A stretch of DNA of 64,000 nt. Origin: Eledone cirrhosa (lineage: Eukaryota). The stretch is from positions 15,314,001 to 15,378,000 of the forward strand of contig OZ024752.1 in the NCBI GenBank assembly GCA_964016885.1. Direction: 5' to 3'. Positions 7,303 through 60,692 of the stretch are shown piece by piece. Below the pieces are notes generated by a model. The model did no database searches, was not told where the DNA came from, and saw nothing but the letters and a program-made list of their open reading frames with translations. The translations under genes and the position numbers were made by a program. The stretch's first letter is position 1. Every line of letters begins with the position of its first letter.

Positions 7303-10300
7303 ACAATTAAGTTAAAGATGTACATCCATATATGTATACTGAAATACTAGTATGTATATGAATACACACACGTATACATATGTAGGTGTACCAAGTTTTT
7401 TCACTGGTCACTTTACTGTGAGTGGCCAGCTATTCTGTATGTAAACACACAGACAAACCGGTTTTTAGAGTCATACTGGTTTTTGAGGAAACACCTCTCC
7501 TCTATTCTCCAGAAAGCCAGACAAGGAATATTGAACTAGTTTCGTTGTTGTTACAACTCATCAGCAATATTTACCTATCTTCCGGCCTCTCTAGAGAATC
7601 GTAAAAGCACATATCGTTATATGCTTTTTCTATGAAAATTAGTAGTGGGCAGACTAACTTGCATAGAGTGTGAGTAAGTACCGGTTCAACGGAGACGATA
7701 AAAACAAATAACGAAACAAAATTAAATTTCGTTTCGTTTGTAACTCACTTTTGTATGACTGACGCTTAAACAATTAAGTTAAAGATGTACATCCATATAT
7801 GTATACTGAAATACTAGTATGTATATGAATACACACACGTATACATATGTAGGTGTACCAAGTTTTTTCACTGGTCACTTTACTGTGAGTGGCCAGCTAT
7901 TCTGTATGTAAACACACAGACAAACCGGTTTTTAGAGTCATACTGGTTTTTGAGGAAACACCTCTCCTCTATTCTCCAGAAAGCCAGACAAGGAATATTG
8001 AACTAGTTTCGTTGTTGTTACAACTCATCAGCAATATTTACCTATCTTCCGGCCTCTCTAGAGAATCGTAAAAGCACATATCGTTATATGCTTTTTCTAT
8101 GAAAATTAGTAGTGGGCAGACTAACTTGCATAGAGTGTGAGTAAGTACCGGTTCAACGGAGACGATAAAAACAAATAACGAAACAAAATTAAATTTCGTT
8201 TCGTTTGTAACTCACTTTTGTATGACTGACGCTTAAACAATTAAGTTAAAGATGTACATCCATATATGTATACTGAAATACTAGTATGTATATGAATACA
8301 CACACGTATACATATGTAGGTGTACCAAGTTTTTTCACTGGTCACTTTACTGTGAGTGGCCAGCTATTCTGTATGTAAACACACAGACAAACCGGTTTTT
8401 AGAGTCATACTGGTTTTTGAGGAAACACCTCTCCTCTATTCTCCAGAAAGCCAGACAAGGAATATTGAACTAGTTTCGTTGTTGTTACAACTCATCAGCA
8501 ATATTTACCTATCTTCCGGCCTCTCTAGAGAATCGTAAAAGCACATATCGTTATATGCTTTTTCTATGAAAATTAGTAGTGGGCAGACTAACTTGCATAG
8601 AGTGTGAGTAAGTACCGGTTCAACGGAGACGATAAAAACAAATAACGAAACAAAATTAAATTTCGTTTCGTTTGTAACTCACTTTTGTATGACTGACGCT
8701 TAAACAATTAAGTTAAAGATGTACATCCATATATGTATACTGAAATACTAGTATGTATATGAATACACACACGTATACATATGTAGGTGTACCAAGTTTT
8801 TTCACTGGTCACTTTACTGTGAGTGGCCAGCTATTCTGTATGTAAACACACAGACAAACCGGTTTTTAGAGTCATACTGGTTTTTGAGGAAACACCTCTC
8901 CTCTATTCTCCAGAAAGCCAGACAAGGAATATTGAACTAGTTTCGTTGTTGTTACAACTCATCAGCAATATTTACCTATCTTCCGGCCTCTCTAGAGAAT
9001 CGTAAAAGCACATATCGTTATATGCTTTTTCTATGAAAATTAGTAGTGGGCAGACTAACTTGCATAGAGTGTGAGTAAGTACCGGTTCAACGGAGACGAT
9101 AAAAACAAATAACGAAACAAAATTAAATTTCGTTTCGTTTGTAACTCACTTTTGTATGACTGACGCTTAAACAATTAAGTTAAAGATGTACATCCATATA
9201 TGTATACTGAAATACTAGTATGTATATGAATACACACACGTATACATATGTAGGTGTACCAAGTTTTTTCACTGGTCACTTTACTGTGAGTGGCCAGCTA
9301 TTCTGTATGTAAACACACAGACAAACCGGTTTTTAGAGTCATACTGGTTTTTGAGGAAACACCTCTCCTCTATTCTCCAGAAAGCCAGACAAGGAATATT
9401 GAACTAGTTTCGTTGTTGTTACAACTCATCAGCAATATTTACCTATCTTCCGGCCTCTCTAGAGAATCGTAAAAGCACATATCGTTATATGCTTTTTCTA
9501 TGAAAATTAGTAGTGGGCAGACTAACTTGCATAGAGTGTGAGTAAGTACCGGTTCAACGGAGACGATAAAAACAAATAACGAAACAAAATTAAATTTCGT
9601 TTCGTTTGTAACTCACTTTTGTATGACTGACGCTTAAACAATTAAGTTAAAGATGTACATCCATATATGTATACTGAAATACTAGTATGTATATGAATAC
9701 ACACACGTATACATATGTAGGTGTACCAAGTTTTTTCACTGGTCACTTTACTGTGAGTGGCCAGCTATTCTGTATGTAAACACACAGACAAACCGGTTTT
9801 TAGAGTCATACTGGTTTTTGAGGAAACACCTCTCCTCTATTCTCCAGAAAGCCAGACAAGGAATATTGAACTAGTTTCGTTGTTGTTACAACTCATCAGC
9901 AATATTTACCTATCTTCCGGCCTCTCTAGAGAATCGTAAAAGCACATATCGTTATATGCTTTTTCTATGAAAATTAGTAGTGGGCAGACTAACTTGCATA
10001 GAGTGTGAGTAAGTACCGGTTCAACGGAGACGATAAAAACAAATAACGAAACAAAATTAAATTTCGTTTCGTTTGTAACTCACTTTTGTATGACTGACGC
10101 TTAAACAATTAAGTTAAAGATGTACATCCATATATGTATACTGAAATACTAGTATGTATATGAATACACACACGTATACATATGTAGGTGTACCAAGTTT
10201 TTTCACTGGTCACTTTACTGTGAGTGGCCAGCTATTCTGTATGTAAACACACAGACAAACCGGTTTTTAGAGTCATACTGGTTTTTGAGGAAACACCTCT

Positions 10301-12302: not shown

Positions 12303-14531
12303 GAGAGGCCGGAAGATAGGTAAATATTGCTGATGAGTTGTAACAACAACGAAACTAGTTCAATATTCCTTGTCTGGCTTTCTGGAGAATAGAGGAGAGG
12401 TGTTTCCTCAAAAACCAGTATGACTCTAAAAACCGGTTTGTCTGTGTGTTTACATACAGAATAGCTGGCCACTCACAGTAAAGTGACCAGTGAAAAAACT
12501 TGGTACACCTACATATGTATACGTGTGTGTATTCATATACATACTAGTATTTCAGTATACATATATGGATGTACATCTTTAACTTAATTGTTTAAGCGTC
12601 AGTCATACAAAAGTGAGTTACAAACGAAACGAAATTTAATTTTGTTTCGTTATTTGTTTTTATCGTCTCCGTTGAACCGGTACTTACTCACACTCTATGC
12701 AAGTTAGTCTGCCCACTACTAATTTTCATAGAAAAAGCATATAACGATATGTGCTTTTACGATTCTCTAGAGAGGCCGGAAGATAGGTAAATATTGCTGA
12801 TGAGTTGTAACAACAACGAAACTAGTTCAATATTCCTTGTCTGGCTTTCTGGAGAATAGAGGAGAGGTGTTTCCTCAAAAACCAGTATGACTCTAAAAAC
12901 CGGTTTGTCTGTGTGTTTACATACAGAATAGCTGGCCACTCACAGTAAAGTGACCAGTGAAAAAACTTGGTACACCTACATATGTATACGTGTGTGTATT
13001 CATATACATACTAGTATTTCAGTATACATATATGGATGTACATCTTTAACTTAATTGTTTAAGCGTCAGTCATACAAAAGTGAGTTACAAACGAAACGAA
13101 ATTTAATTTTGTTTCGTTATTTGTTTTTATCGTCTCCGTTGAACCGGTACTTACTCACACTCTATGCAAGTTAGCCTGCCCACTACTAATTTTCATAGAA
13201 AAAGCATATAACGATATGTGCTTTTACGATTCTCTAGAGAGGCCGGAAGATAGGTAAATATTGCTGATGAGTTGTAACAACAACGAAACTAGTTCAATAT
13301 TCCTTGTCTGGCTTTCTGGAGAATAGAGGAGAGGTGTTTCCTCAAAAACCAGTATGACTCTAAAAACCGGTTTGTCTGTGTGTTTACATACAGAATAGCT
13401 GGCCACTCACAGTAAAGTGACCAGTGAAAAAACTTGGTACACCTACATATGTATACGTGTGTGTATTCATATACATACTAGTATTTCAGTATACATATAT
13501 GGATGTACATCTTTAACTTAATTGTTTAAGCGTCAGTCATACAAAAGTGAGTTACAAACGAAACGAAATTTAATTTTGTTTCGTTATTTGTTTTTATCGT
13601 CTCCGTTGAACCGGTACTTACTCACACTCTATGCAAGTTAGTCTGCCCACTACTAATTTTCATAGAAAAAGCATATAACGATATGTGCTTTTACGATTCT
13701 CTAGAGAGGCCGGAAGATAGGTAAATATTGCTGATGAGTTGTAACAACAACGAAACTAGTTCAATATTCCTTGTCTGGCTTTCTGGAGAATAGAGGAGAG
13801 GTGTTTCCTCAAAAACCAGTATGACTCTAAAAACCGGTTTGTCTGTGTGTTTACATACAGAATAGCTGGCCACTCACAGTAAAGTGACCAGTGAAAAAAC
13901 TTGGTACACCTACATATGTATACGTGTGTGTATTCATATACATACTAGTATTTCAGTATACATATATGGATGTACATCTTTAACTTAATTGTTTAAGCGT
14001 CAGTCATACAAAAGTGAGTTACAAACGAAACGAAATTTAATTTTGTTTCGTTATTTGTTTTTATCGTCTCCGTTGAACCGGTACTTACTCACACTCTATG
14101 CAAGTTAGTCTGCCCACTACTAATTTTCATAGAAAAAGCATATAACGATATGTGCTTTTACGATTCTCTAGAGAGGCCGGAAGATAGGTAAATATTGCTG
14201 ATGAGTTGTAACAACAACGAAACTAGTTCAATATTCCTTGTCTGGCTTTCTGGAGAATAGAGGAGAGGTGTTTCCTCAAAAAACAGTATGACTCTAAAAA
14301 CCGGTTTGTCTGTGTGTTTACATACAGAATAGCTGGCCACTCACAGTAAAGTGACCAGTGAAAAAACTTGGTACACCTACATATGTATACGTGTGTGTAT
14401 TCATATACATACTAGTATTTCAGTATACATATATGGATGTACATCTTTAACTTAATTGTTTAAGCGTCAGTCATACAAAAGTGAGTTACAAACGAAACGA
14501 AATTTAATTTTGTTTCGTTATTTGTTTTTAT
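12298..14531 (+). repeat. Inverted continuation of the 467-bp array, ~4.8 copies
   Basis: Reverse complement of the preceding array; only two substitutions seen (13175 T>C, 14283 C>A); ends in (TA)n. Confidence 0.95.
12323..12367 (+). ncRNA. Minimal type I hammerhead ribozyme, first of 5 plus-strand copies
   Basis: aatattg CTGATGA gttgt aaca acaac GAAA ctag tt caatatt. Confidence 0.9.
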
Positions 14532-14708
14532 ATGTATATATATATATGTATATGTATATATATATATGTATATGTATATATATATATGTATATGTATATA
14601 TATATATGTATATGTATATATATATATATGTATATGCATATATGTATATGTATATATATATATGTATATGTATATATATATATGTATATGTATATATATG
14701 TATATATA

Positions 14709-14753
<45 letters not shown>

Positions 14754-14760
14754 GTATATA

Positions 14761-14882
14761 ACGAAGGAAAAGTGGTAAGGAACCAGGTGGACCATAACGC
14801 ACCAAAGTACTCAATATTTAGGGTAGTAGAATTAGCCGTCGAAACGGCTTGAGCTCAGCCGTCGGGGTCTTACTTGTTCCTA
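14761..14882. repeat. Short interspersed TA-embedded repeat (family B)
   Basis: Near-identical to 18171-18240 and 18317-18370; partial match at 3750-3787; contains hairpin agccgt-cgaa-acggct. Confidence 0.7.
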
Positions 14883-18170: not shown

Positions 18171-18173
<3 letters not shown>

Positions 18174-18370
18174 AGGAGATGTGGTAAGGAACCAGGTGGA
18201 CCATAACGCACCAAAGTACTCAATACTTGAGGTAGTAGAGTGGGTAATAGGAACCAGTAAGACCGCGACAGCTGAGCTCAAGCCGTTTCGACGGCTAATT
18301 CTGTACTCTGAGTCCAGAATTAGCCGTCGAAACGGCTTGAGCTCAGCCGTCGGGGTCTTACTGGTTCCTA
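18171..18370. repeat. Family B repeat with fold-back (arms ~18248-18302 / ~18316-18370)
   Basis: ~55-bp inverted repeat with two mismatches seen. Confidence 0.8.
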
Positions 18371-27595: not shown

Positions 27596-28860
27596 TTTCT
27601 GAATTTCTTTAGCAAGATTCTTTATCTGAAAACGTGTGTTGAAACCGATATTGTTATACTTTGGGAGGGTCATGTTGCCAATAAGAAACACACGCACCAG
27701 ATGCTGTCACTCAAATTTATTATAAATTAAATTATAAATTTAAAAATTTATAAATTTCCGGTTGGTTGGTTCCACAACCGGACGGTTGTTCATATATTGT
27801 CAAAGTTATATATCGTCACACAAGCTGTGACCTCTTCAGTGACTGGGGATTCTTTTCTTTGTTTTGTGCCTCTCCTTTGTTCTGTCCTACGCCATCTTGT
27901 GTTTGTGTGTGTTGTGTGCTTAGTTTGCGCATGTGTTACATCCGGGTGTCTGTGTGTGTTTTTATTTGTTTATTTATTTGTTTATTTACATGTTACTGGT
28001 TGGTTGTTTGTTCTATGTGTGTGTGTTTTCATTTTGTCCTTAATTGTAAGTTGTGATGTTGCTATTACATTCATGTTTTCTATTTAATTTTGGTTGGAGT
28101 TCATTTATGTTTATTGCCTCTGTGATTTGTCTAAACATTGCGTCTTTTCTGTGTGTAGATTTTATTTTTATTTCTATGTTCTCTAATTTGCCCTTATGTT
28201 CTATTTGAGCATGTTGGTAGAGTACAGATGATTATTTTCTATCTTGAAGCTCTTGCCAGTGTTCATTTAATCGTTCTGCTATACTACGAGCTGTCTCACC
28301 TATGTACACTATATTCTTATCTTTACAGTGTCCTTCAGTATATCTTATGCTATATAATGTGTTTCTAGTTTTACAGTTAATATGGGGGCTTAGTTTACAG
28401 ATTATGCATGTCTTATCTATAGAGGGAGGTATTTGAAAAGGGTATGTATTACTAATAAGTTTTTTTTATGGAGGTACCTGGTCTTTCTACTATCTTAATA
28501 TTTATTTTAAGTTTATCTAGGGCCCTTCTAAATGTGTAAGCTAGTTCACCTCTCGGGGTTCTATTGATGAACATTACACTCTGGTATTTATTGCTCTCAT
28601 ACCATGAGTTTATTCTAAAATCTTATTCATAGTTCTTTCTATTCTATTTCATATTTGCTCCTATACAAGGGGCAGGTCCCATTTGTATCATTATTTACCA
28701 TTATTTCCCATTTGGTTCTGGCTCCTCTATATACTCAAATTTTGTATCTTTTATATCTCCACAGTTAATTCATTTGGTCCTCAATGTTTATCATTGAGTG
28801 ACCAACGGTTAAAAATACAGATATAAATATAAATATATAGTCTAACAAAGTTATAAAGAA
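27593..28860 (-). mobile_element. Second, diverged PLE related to 4735-7140 (linker, GIY-YIG, 3' region)
   Basis: Minus strand reads GTCPLYRSK..CKTRNTLYSIR..YIGETARSIAERLNEHW..FRQITEA..LNRKHE; 3' end shares tattgttatactt.gggagggtcat with 4790-4815. Confidence 0.85.
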
Positions 28861-41994: not shown

Positions 41995-42028
41995 GGAGGT
42001 GAGTTTTATTGTAGTACAATAAAGCAAT

Positions 42029-43742
42029 TGCAACTGCCGCATTAAAAATAAATGTCCTCTCAACAACCATTGTCTTGATAAAAACTTAATTTATGAATGT
42101 GAAGTTATAACTAGCACCAATTCCTTCACCTATTTTGGCTCCACGTCCACCTCTTTTAAAGCTCGTCTCTATAATCACCATTCATCTTTTAAATACAAAC
42201 TTAAAAGAACCAACACGGCTCTCTCAGAACTCATATGGTCCTTGAAAGACAAAAACATTAAATATACCATCTTTTGGAAGAAGGTTTCTTCTGCATCCTC
42301 ATACTTGAACAGCTCTCTATCTAAAATCTGTAATCTCTGCCTAAATGAAAAATTTACCATTATCTCTAATCTAGATTCTATAATAAATAGACGTACAGAT
42401 TTGTTTTCTATCTGCCTGCATAAATTCCATAGGACTTTTCACAAAGTATACAGCTAATATTCAATTCTTTATCAATTTAGAATCTTTTCTCAAAGGCACA
42501 TATACATACACCTCTTTAAAATATACCCATCTTCCTACCTTACTTCAAAGGGCATTATACACTCTATAATACTTGTTTACTCATTACCCTCATTCTATCT
42601 TTACCTTGTAAAATCTTTCATAACATAAACATTTGTTTTTTTTGACGTTAGAATATTCATCCGCAATTATTATTATTTTTTCTCTCTATCATAAAACTTT
42701 TAATCTCAATTTCATCCTTAATTTATTATTTTTTTCTCCCCATCAACGAACTGATTCTTAATACATATTAACTCTTTCTTCGCACATATTATCAACTCCT
42801 TCAATATACAAACCTTAACTTCACATTATTTTTCTCAAATCATCTAATACACAAACCTTAATAATTTTTTAATACATATTAACTCTTTCTTCGCACATAT
42901 TATCAATTCCTTCAATATACAAACTTTAACTTCACATTATTTTTCTCAAATCCTTCTACACACAAACCTTAATAATTTTTTCTCTTCGTTAATTTTGAAA
43001 TTGCCACAATACTTATAAACATACACCTTTTTGACGTTAGAATATTCATCCGCAATTATTTTTTTTCTCTCTATCTTCATACATAAACTCCCTCTCTTTC
43101 CTCTTACATATTTTTCCCTTCGTTAATTTTCAAATTCTTTTAATTTATACATTATCTTCCAACGGTTCTCAACCTCTTATGTAAAACAATATATCTTTTC
43201 TCAGTTATAAAAACTATCTCTTTCTCTCTATCACCCATCTCTCCCTCTCCACCTTCACTCTCATCTCCTCCCCTTTTTTCATCCTTTCCACCCCCCTCCC
43301 TAAATAAAATATTTTTTCCTCGTACATATTTTTCCCTTCGTTAATTTTCAAATTCTTTTAATTTATACATTATCTTCCAACGGTTTTCAACATCCCTATG
43401 TAAAACAATATATCTTCTCTCAGTTATAAAAACTATCTCTTTCTCTTTATCACCCATCTCTCCCTCTCCACCTTCACTCTCATCTCCTCCCCTTTTTCAT
43501 CCTTTCCACCCCACCCACCCCTTCTCTAAATAAAATACTTTTCCCAATATCACACATCAATCTAAAACCACTTTTCATATGTTGATTTAAAACTGCACTA
43601 TCCACAAGTGTTTTTTAGCCTTCATATCATGTTCTCCTGTTTTATCTGATGAAAACACAAATATTATTGCATGATGATGTTTGTTTTTGAAATGCGCATA
43701 ATAAAATACATGGAACTCCTTTAACCATCTTTTGATCTCATA
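42029..43742 (+). mobile_element. 5'-truncated PLE: uninterrupted GIY-YIG reading frame (42029-42457), long pyrimidine-rich 3' region, hammerhead
   Basis: CNCRIKNKCPLNNHCLDKNLIYECEV..YFGSTSTSFKARLYNHHSSF..TALSELIWSLKD..CNLCLNEKFTII..INRRTDLFSICLHK; internal direct repeats ~42770/42872 and ~43105/43323. Confidence 0.88.
43638..43708 (+). ncRNA. Minimal type I hammerhead ribozyme
   Basis: tgttttat-CTGATGA-aaacacaaatattatt..gatgatgtttgttttt-GAAA-tgcgca-TA-ataaaata; palindromic TGCGCA. Confidence 0.88.
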
Positions 43743-60406: not shown

Positions 60407-60626
60407 GCGTCGATGAATTATGTAAACTATATGTATGTGTTTGTGTCTATATTGTATCTGTATTATTTTTGACCGCCGGTCAGTCAATGGCAACATTGAG
60501 GACCGAGTAAGTTAGATCGCAGATACAAAAGACAGCGAGAAGCGAAAACCAACCAAACAGTGAGTGTGTTCTGTTATTAATTCTGGCAATATTACGCAAA
60601 TATGACCCTCCCCAAATATAACAATA
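60407..60626 (+). mobile_element. Solo 3' pLTR fragment of the 4735-7140 PLE family
   Basis: Reverse complement of ~4788-4995. Confidence 0.85.
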
Positions 60627-60692
60627 TATATATATAGATATATGTATATACATATATGTATGTATATATAGATATATATATATACATATATG

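Follow-up and report, generated by a model that had tools for sequence, protein, structure and literature searches.

The stretch of Eledone cirrhosa DNA analyzed here (hereafter the window: 64,000 nt, positions 15,314,001 to 15,378,000 of contig OZ024752.1, assembly GCA_964016885.1) carries, between positions 7303 and 14531, a single insertion composed of two head-to-head arms of 467-bp units inside (TA)n. The best explanation is that an abundant and young non-LTR retrozyme inserted here in two-armed form, likely through a Penelope-type reverse transcriptase (RT)/endonuclease that cut the (TA)n target and used its two cut ends to copy a single 467-nt RNA, which was probably circular. The features of the locus are the following, with unit positions numbered from the predicted hammerhead cut:

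7142..7302: target flank next to the A end, rich in (TA)n
7303..12302, minus strand: left arm of 10.7 identical 467-bp units, with the hammerhead on the minus strand
12299..12302: head-to-head arm junction, a 4-nt overlap (TCTA)
12299..14531, plus strand: right arm, 4.8 units, hammerhead on the plus strand
12779..12850, plus strand: representative type I hammerhead, recurring each 467 bp
12790-12796 with 12828-12834, plus strand: stem I of this hammerhead, followed by CUGAUGA (12797-12803), stem II (12804-12817) and GAAA (12818-12821)
12827, plus strand: nucleotide (GUU) after which the cut is predicted, beside a palindromic CUAG loop
13295..13761, plus strand: one complete unit bounded by two predicted cuts (the putative RNA monomer), for which a circular fold was computed
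13637, plus strand: unit position 343, with G here but A in most of the family; a paired A-U site and candidate A-to-I edit in DNA
14458..14531, plus strand: 74-nt 'tail' separating the putative priming sites A and B and containing a 13-bp hairpin (14491-14519); seen only at the B end
14532..14760: target flank next to the B end, rich in (TA)n

The outer end of the left arm, corresponding to the RNA 3' end, lies at unit position 231 (site A) and its inner end at 369, while the right arm extends from position 406 at its inner end to position 303 (site B) at its outer end. The placement of the junction at 12299-12302 is based on the assembly and on the rule common to the other loci. The right arm contains two substitutions, each confined to a single unit (13175 and 14283), and G343 was found in 14/14 scored units of both arms. 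A copy with G343 located 53 kb upstream was considered as donor and rejected, as it belongs to an unrelated, older haplotype. The initial annotation had described the locus as one tandem array of about 15.5 near-identical units. The 467-bp period is confirmed, but the second arm is inverted, and by overlooking this inversion the annotation missed the main mechanistic clue.

The window contains 16 hammerhead copies, and the core proposed from the sequence (CUGAUGA, a 5-bp stem II, GAAA and GUU, together with a 7-bp stem I and a palindromic stem III) was recovered as described. The designation 'minimal' is apt for stem III, which consists of one base pair and the palindromic CUAG loop, but not for stem I, which runs beyond a UA bulge into a long helix. 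The suggested comparison with Rfam Hammerhead_1 did return a match, at 26.3 bits and hence under the threshold of 34, in a copy cut by the edge; the match to HH9 (37.7 bits, E 1.2e-6) was likewise below the gathering score of 52. Rfam microRNA matches in the window were dismissed as (TA)n noise. The core is intact in most of 687 scored hammerhead copies, and most copies carry GUU, not GUC, at the cut site. In the lowest-energy fold the hammerhead core is partly paired (-36.1 vs -34.6 kcal/mol). The fold of the unit was better than that of all 100 shuffled sequences (z -6.75), and the circular fold reached -144.4 kcal/mol, compared with -113.9 kcal/mol for the opposite strand. Over 40 aligned units the fold is conserved (98.9% paired, 5 pairs with double changes), in a test whose slid control is inflated since the structure was taken from one member; in 12 of these 40 units stem II carries a compensatory change from U-A to A-U.

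The unit has a GC content of 0.35 and, as had been noted, no credible ORF: in an endless repeat of the unit the longest frames span 57/62 aa from stop to stop and 19/30 aa from ATG. The arrays follow unit after unit, without an RT or GIY-YIG ORF between the repeats, and for this reason we rejected the idea that the unit is the pLTR of an autonomous coding Penelope-like element. With 467 bp, it is also not a comparatively large retrozyme, as had been suggested, since it falls within the range of 51-972 bp given by Li et al. 2026 (10.64898/2026.07.22.740005).

Exact hammerhead matches numbered at least 7,551 in the genome (4,948 plus 2,603, the latter carrying the compensatory stem II change), compared with none for the reversed controls, and the copies are dispersed on many chromosomes. 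The unit is also covered in four sequencing runs of unrecorded kind, among them three at low depth that are coded as other organisms, a coverage that carries no information on expression. The ends of the insertions fall at two constant positions of the unit, A (229-234) and B (about 303), one per arm. Among 50 two-armed loci that had not been selected by their ends, and for which split stretches were merged by hand, 46 showed the combination A+B, one A+A and none B+B, with two other combinations and one unresolved. When 80 loci were selected by their A end, the partner end was located at B in 64, at A in none and elsewhere in three; it was absent in 10 and off the stretch in three. Thus, 64/67 loci with a defined second end had it at B, although with the one-armed loci included the share of B partners (64/77, 83%) fell just short of the more than 85% that we had predicted beforehand. 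The inverted, 5'-truncated second copy, absent in those 10/80 A-selected loci, was scored at 101 junctions. Target duplications, read by eye, measured about 11 bp at three loci (L042, L061 and L071) and 8 bp at L049; where the target is pure (TA)n, as in this window, a target duplication is not definable. The thousands of copies, the (TA)n targets, the inverted second arm and the two-site tail all support the retrozyme reading and the Penelope link of the initial annotation.

Both arms of a locus carried one haplotype, with 3.1 differences/kb within a locus vs 30.2/kb between loci, and the partner arm was the closest arm in 38/47 cases. Arm lengths were correlated (rho 0.48, 86 pairs) and neither arm was regularly longer, the A arm exceeding the B arm in just 42/86 pairs, which led us to reject fold-back from one fixed arm as a general cause. 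The predicted cut was crossed on the first pass by 155 of the 165 arms that reached the cut region, and the sequence across it was exact in 351/359 hammerheads. For the analysis of junctions and arm lengths, which excluded L063, L067, L188, L239 and L290, arm 5' ends fell within the first 30 nt past the cut in 28/202 cases vs 13 expected (about twofold, p 1e-4), and were rare just before the cut. The 5' ends had seemed uniform with the first 37 junctions (p 0.08), and the excess at positions 1-30 became apparent only with 101 junctions. Near-perfect palindromes occurred at 16/101 junctions, compared with 5.4 expected.

Derived variants fixed throughout an array were predominantly A>G. The pilot yielded 19 A>G vs 5 T>C, and new loci (67/80 usable, the other 13 being too short or distant) gave 19 vs 6 (p 0.015). 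Among variants of the new loci present in both arms, the ratio was 17 vs 4 (p 0.007), or 13 vs 3 by sites (p 0.02). All 19 fixed A>G changes in the new loci lay at paired A-U sites, and C>T was not enriched (0 vs 3 G>A). Over 133 loci, A>G and T>C amounted to 36 vs 10 events and 21 vs 9 sites, with 34/36 A>G events at paired sites. Five loci with two insertions or a noisy, chimeric or gapped sequence (L044, L050, L058, L178 and L188) were excluded from the haplotype and variant counts, and L086, L176 and L186 were excluded from the pilot count as too distant. Variants confined to single units had no A>G bias in either of two counts (14 vs 17 and 11 vs 14). At seven recurrent A>G sites, 38/39 locus calls were all-or-none, on differing backgrounds, and a recurrent A>G reached 23/23 units across both arms; L090 and L303 had the recurrent G in part of their units only. 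With a looser filter, the contrast of all vs partial units was 31:21 for A>G and 13:19 for T>C, which was not significant (p 0.12). ADAR avoids G as the 5' neighbor, and a 5' G was present at 1/20 A>G sites vs 17/90 paired A, a trend only. Simple G-U tolerance was rejected as the cause of the bias, given the lack of a C>T excess (6 vs 8 G>A) and the tolerance of G>A at paired sites. Fixed A>G changes in stems fit ADAR editing of one monomeric, probably circular, RNA, which would then have been reverse transcribed repeatedly from both target ends.

Rolling-circle copying does not account for long arms entirely, and some of them grew locally, as seen from patterns of period 2, 3 or 4 confined to one arm (L066, L070, L057 and L038) and from a two-base variant that is exclusive to 5 units of one array. 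At L185, L087 and L175 the first or last unit is unlike the remaining units, and at L267 and L297 A>G alternates between units, suggesting that a minority of insertions involved oligomeric templates or switching. Two loci, L048 and L058, are chimeric, and L048 changes haplotype mid-array.

The same genome harbors a young coding Penelope-like family (L121-L140), of which a broken copy lies at 4731-7142 of the window. Its RT-endonuclease frame of about 1,050 aa had no Pfam family (0/3 proteins), and a divergent endonuclease query returned this family in 30/30 loci. The closest named relative of the neighboring coding element, with 69% identity, is labeled Octopus vulgaris. We label the family 'Neptune-like' on account of a Cys cluster before the GIY-YIG motif, a feature described by Craig et al. 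2021 (PMC8557442). It resembles the retrozyme unit in its (TA)n targets, its head-to-head arms, its A+B ends (11/12 two-armed copies) and the distance from motif to ends, which lie 211 and 268 nt past its hammerhead-like motif; it differs in this motif and in having an ORF. Alignment of its terminal 580 nt with the unit was no better than with shuffles (24/300 as good; one family examined).

Could the same Penelope-type double priming have used an uncut linear multimer as template? Uniform arms would then reflect uniform donors and later local duplication, and no circle would be needed. Uncut RNA is indeed the dominant substrate of the anole Penelope in vitro (Frangieh et al. 2024, PMC11167929), local expansion does occur here, and a few loci have a different first unit in both arms or an alternating A>G. 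However, ADAR acting on a multimer should give single-unit A>G changes, and the single-unit variants are without such an excess; moreover, the all-or-none calls at recurrent sites, extending over both arms, are hard to reconcile with this scenario, and one variant in two inverted arms is not easily fixed by local duplication. We therefore regard an uncut template as unlikely. We give even less credence to a hammerhead-cut linear monomer on which the RT would jump from the 5' end to its own 3' end and so mimic a circle. The clustering of arm 5' ends just after the cut is what such a template could produce, and the haplotype switch within L048 could record a jump, but a strong helix starting at the same place could account for the stops, the sequence across the cut is almost always exact and crossed, and haplotypes would be expected to be mixed much more frequently than observed if the RT jumped between molecules.

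The least probable explanation, to which we assign a very small chance, is a repeat generated at the DNA level (a satellite, an extrachromosomal DNA circle, a fold-back or an assembly artefact) with a hammerhead left as a vestige of a Penelope terminal repeat. It would be in line with the excess of palindromic junctions, with local expansion and with the preference of Li, Clavereau & Pollet 2026 for tandem birth and unequal crossover (10.64898/2026.07.22.740005). It is countered by the fixed A and B ends on many chromosomes, the target duplications, the strand-specific A>G bias and the compensatory stem II change in 2,603 copies, and, as regards fold-back from one fixed arm, by the fact that either arm can be the longer one.

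Copying of one RNA from both target ends, the reading that we prefer, has a precedent in LINE-1 twin priming, in which a single RNA is primed from the two target ends, with a head-to-head inversion as the result. In LINE-1 the second priming site is a chance microhomology and inversions are a minority, whereas in the present family the two sites are constant and insertions as a rule have two arms. Neither retrozymes nor the Penelope tail are new. Metazoan non-LTR retrozymes are described as non-coding, low in GC and highly paired, with one type I hammerhead per unit and thousands of copies (Cervera & de la Pena 2020, PMC7229834; Li et al. 2026, 10.64898/2026.07.22.740005), and the present family shares all these traits as well as the coexistence with Penelope-like elements. 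Its stem III resembles that of the axolotl HHR_Amex1 (one pair and a palindromic tetraloop), reported to cut better as a dimer (same two sources), while 8/9 Xenopus dimers did not cut (10.64898/2026.07.22.740005). Known retrozymes are described as head-to-tail tandems, whereas most insertions here consist of two inverted arms that end at two fixed positions, and edits appear to be fixed across the arms; the word 'inverted' is absent from the main text of Cervera & de la Pena 2020 (PMC7229834), though the supplements of this paper and of Li et al. 2026 may show inverted copies. For known retrozymes circular RNA has been demonstrated and rolling-circle reverse transcription is the proposed model (PMC7229834; 10.64898/2026.07.22.740005), whereas the circle postulated here is deduced from DNA sequence.

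EN+ Penelope-like elements form an inverted 5'-truncated copy and a one-ended tail (Craig et al. 2021, PMC8557442), and Penelope has two internal reverse-transcription start sites (Frangieh et al. 2024, PMC11167929). The retrozyme insertions are similar in their inverted adjacent copy, one-end tail and microsatellite or AT-rich targets, as well as in the cutting and extension of both DNA strands and the two start sites flanking the tail (PMC8557442; PMC11167929). They differ in lacking an ORF, in a tail of 74 nt vs 30-40 and in arms made of many copies of a short unit; furthermore, we counted a strict A+B pairing, whereas the start sites showed no strand difference in vitro (Frangieh et al. 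2024, PMC11167929). A search of the openly accessible literature returned nothing joining retrozymes with twin priming; inversion in non-LTR retrozymes led to the 2026 preprint and to a 2020 review in which the term occurs only in a reference title; retrozyme with ADAR gave only an unrelated review, ADAR-scarred retrocopy gave nothing, and for hammerheads in octopus there was no title on such a repeat.

Taken together, we propose that an array would be transcribed and cut every 467 nt by hammerheads probably acting as dimers, and that the monomer would be ligated into a circle, in whose stems ADAR may sometimes edit A to I, as suggested by the mutation pattern. A staggered cut of about 11 nt, of which the target duplications are the footprint, would leave two 3' ends in AT, each priming at its own site, A (229-234) or B (303), with the hairpin between these sites. 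Both copies would then proceed through the hammerhead cut site, in many cases repeatedly, before ending at scattered positions and being joined head-to-head, as the arms and junctions record, and one arm may later enlarge through local duplication, as it did at some loci. On balance, we lean slightly towards a more specific view, in which the arrays would preserve a fossil record of rolling-circle reverse transcription, with a probably dimeric Penelope enzyme holding one ADAR-edited 467-nt circle at the hairpin, priming it at two fixed sites from both (TA)n cut ends and copying it over and over.

In the literature cited here, the moving enzyme and the circle as template of the animal retrozyme cycle have been proposed rather than demonstrated, and this family offers countable footprints for both. 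The A+B end rule points to the class of enzyme and provides exact priming sites, and a 467-nt circle that has two defined priming sites would, together with a (TA)n target, make a small and cheap substrate for studies of Penelope insertion. The all-or-none A>G changes may serve as a molecular barcode of the template, and through them RNA editing would feed back into the genome, with single RNA edits turning into heritable DNA changes throughout an array and steadily supplying new retrozyme variants.

The repeat at 7303-14531, which the initial annotation had taken for about 15.5 near-identical tandem units of 467 bp, keeps that period but does not run in a single direction. Instead, it consists of two inverted arms, the right being the reverse complement of the left repeat, with (TA)n bordering the array at both outer ends. 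These and related features of the window are as follows (arm statistics from Tandem Repeats Finder).

4731-7142, - strand: broken, 5'-truncated coding Penelope-like copy, from RT YVDD to GIY-YIG
7303-12302, hammerhead on - strand: left arm, 10.7 units, period 467, 100%
12299-12302: head-to-head junction, arms diverging outward, 4-nt overlap
12299-14531, hammerhead on + strand: right arm, 4.8 units, period 467, 99%
14761-14881 and 18171-18370: further short repeat within (TA)n, its arms inverted at 18171-18370, with a hairpin that contains GAAAC; perhaps one of this genome's permuted-hammerhead repeats
28053-28674: diverged Penelope-like fragment of the young coding family, 70%
42023-42457, + strand: 144-aa frame with Cys cluster and GIY-YIG-like YFG motif
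60415-60648: terminal-repeat fragment of the young coding family, 92.5%

The array contains no ORF, as had been claimed for the unit, and the hammerhead proposed for each unit was recovered by an Rfam search as 16 type I matches (11 on the - strand, 5 on the + strand), each scoring 37.7 bits (E 1.2e-6) and thus under the gathering score of 52. Unit positions are counted from the predicted cut, window 13295 being position 1. The 7 bp of stem I are extended, after a UA bulge, by a long helix; the 5-bp stem II is capped by an AACA loop; and stem III, a single pair, carries a palindromic CUAG loop, which could form an 8-bp self-duplex. Stem III is of the same type as in axolotl HHR_Amex1, which is reported to cut better as a dimer (PMC7229834). 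GUC occupies the predicted cut in 38 of 687 scored copies among the top matches. Across 40 aligned units, 98.9% of cells remain paired, and five pairs carry changes on both sides. Genome-wide, the exact 38-nt hammerhead motif has 4,948 matches, and another 2,603 belong to a subfamily in which a stem II pair has changed in a compensatory way (controls 0 for both). The first 100 matches of the two sets fall into 27 and 20 loci, respectively, giving an estimated total of 1,800 or so loci. The array is a member of a real, young retrozyme family, as initially proposed. The unit also occurs at low depth in three sequencing runs coded as other organisms (X4, X5 and X6), in X4 as a single contig that combines GUC with the compensatory stem II pair.

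Outer arm ends, equivalent to the RNA 3' end, fall at two unit positions, A (229-234) and B (~303), each ending in AT. Among 50 head-to-head loci not picked by their ends, 46 were A+B, one A+A, none B+B, two other and one unresolved. We then wrote down predictions and picked 80 new loci by their A end: the partner end lay at B in 64 (55 long, 7 short, 2 by eye), at A in none and elsewhere in three, while the second arm was absent in ten and beyond the stretch in three. B was therefore the partner in 64/67 loci with a defined second end, and in 83% of the 77 evaluable loci, slightly below the preset 85%. Target duplications measured 8-11 bp at loci with informative flanks. Inner ends were scattered, with a twofold excess at unit positions 1-30 (28/202, p 1e-4), junction overlaps were mostly 0-3 nt, and arm lengths were correlated (rho 0.48), either arm being the longer. 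Positions 24-27 (e.g. window 13318-13321), at the long-helix entry where arm ends are also enriched, form a hotspot for G>A and G>T changes present in single units (18/149 versus 2.2 expected; 10/124 in new loci) in both genomic orientations, perhaps reflecting a reverse-transcriptase pause with errors. On one side, some loci carry a short imperfect (TA) minisatellite reiterating the target motif (window 14532-14700; flanks of L047, L061, L071 and L090), which could stem from slippage during priming or from later expansion.

Both arms of an insertion appear to derive from one template. Indeed, same-locus arms differed by 3.1 per kb versus 30.2 per kb for different-locus arms (47 loci), locus-private variants were fixed in every unit of both arms, and the T283+G343 haplotype of the window array was absent from all other loci examined. 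The predicted cut site was crossed on the first pass by 155/165 arms and its sequence was exact in 351/359 copies, so the molecule copied was either circular or an uncut multimer.

On the strand bearing the hammerhead, derived changes fixed across an array favored A>G over T>C, both in the post hoc pilot (19 versus 5) and in new loci (19 versus 6; 17 versus 4 when required in both arms). In the new loci all A>G changes fell at paired A-U sites, several clustering per copy (L300, L278, L228), and no C>T excess was seen among array-fixed changes; single-unit variants were symmetric, without A>G bias, in both locus sets. At seven recurrent A>G sites, G was all-or-none in 38/39 calls (up to 23/23 units) and on different backgrounds, G343 recurring in old and young subfamilies. 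We infer that ADAR edited one RNA molecule, which then templated every unit of an insertion. A partly edited linear multimer would instead leave mosaic units. A looser all-versus-partial A>G contrast was not significant (p 0.12).

Rolling-circle copying of retrozymes is a published proposal (PMC7229834), and local tandem growth a published alternative (10.64898/2026.07.22.740005). Periodic variants restricted to one arm, and one confined to a single array, indicate that later local expansion of arms occurred, so arm length would not equal the number of turns. Sequence patterns at L185, L087, L175, L267, L297, L048 and L058 suggest oligomeric templates or switching in a minority. L171-L172 (G000:C1:5738000-5752700), with a ~32-unit arm of higher-order structure and a partner arm of 0.74 unit, is a retrozyme becoming a satellite through local expansion.

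Inverted 5'-truncated copies with one-ended tails are known marks of Penelope-like elements (PMC8557442), and in anole Penelope both strands are cut and extended, with two internal start sites flanking the tail (PMC11167929). The young coding Penelope-like family is large, the longest of its listed frames reaching 1,089 aa. Like the 467-bp unit, it has (TA)n targets and one A and one B end (11/12 two-armed copies), located 211 and 268 nt downstream of its hammerhead-like motif. The broken copy abutting the array's left flank is ~90% identical to a young copy over 4788-6334 and 7002-7142, bears a hammerhead-like motif near 5035-5000 and a B-type tail, and is interrupted by a (TA)n tract, with ~33 bp duplicated (6300-6332 and 7009-7041). 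Since the family's terminal region aligned with the unit no better than shuffles, it is a candidate partner by behavior only. The frame at 42023-42457 resembles it weakly (E 0.004) and possibly represents another Penelope clade.

Retrozymes and their Penelope link are already published (PMC7229834; 10.64898/2026.07.22.740005); our searches, which covered openly accessible main texts, found no literature on inverted two-armed retrozymes, or on twin priming or ADAR in retrozymes. The footprints that these insertions leave can be counted and tested, and would record Penelope-type double priming on one edited RNA molecule.
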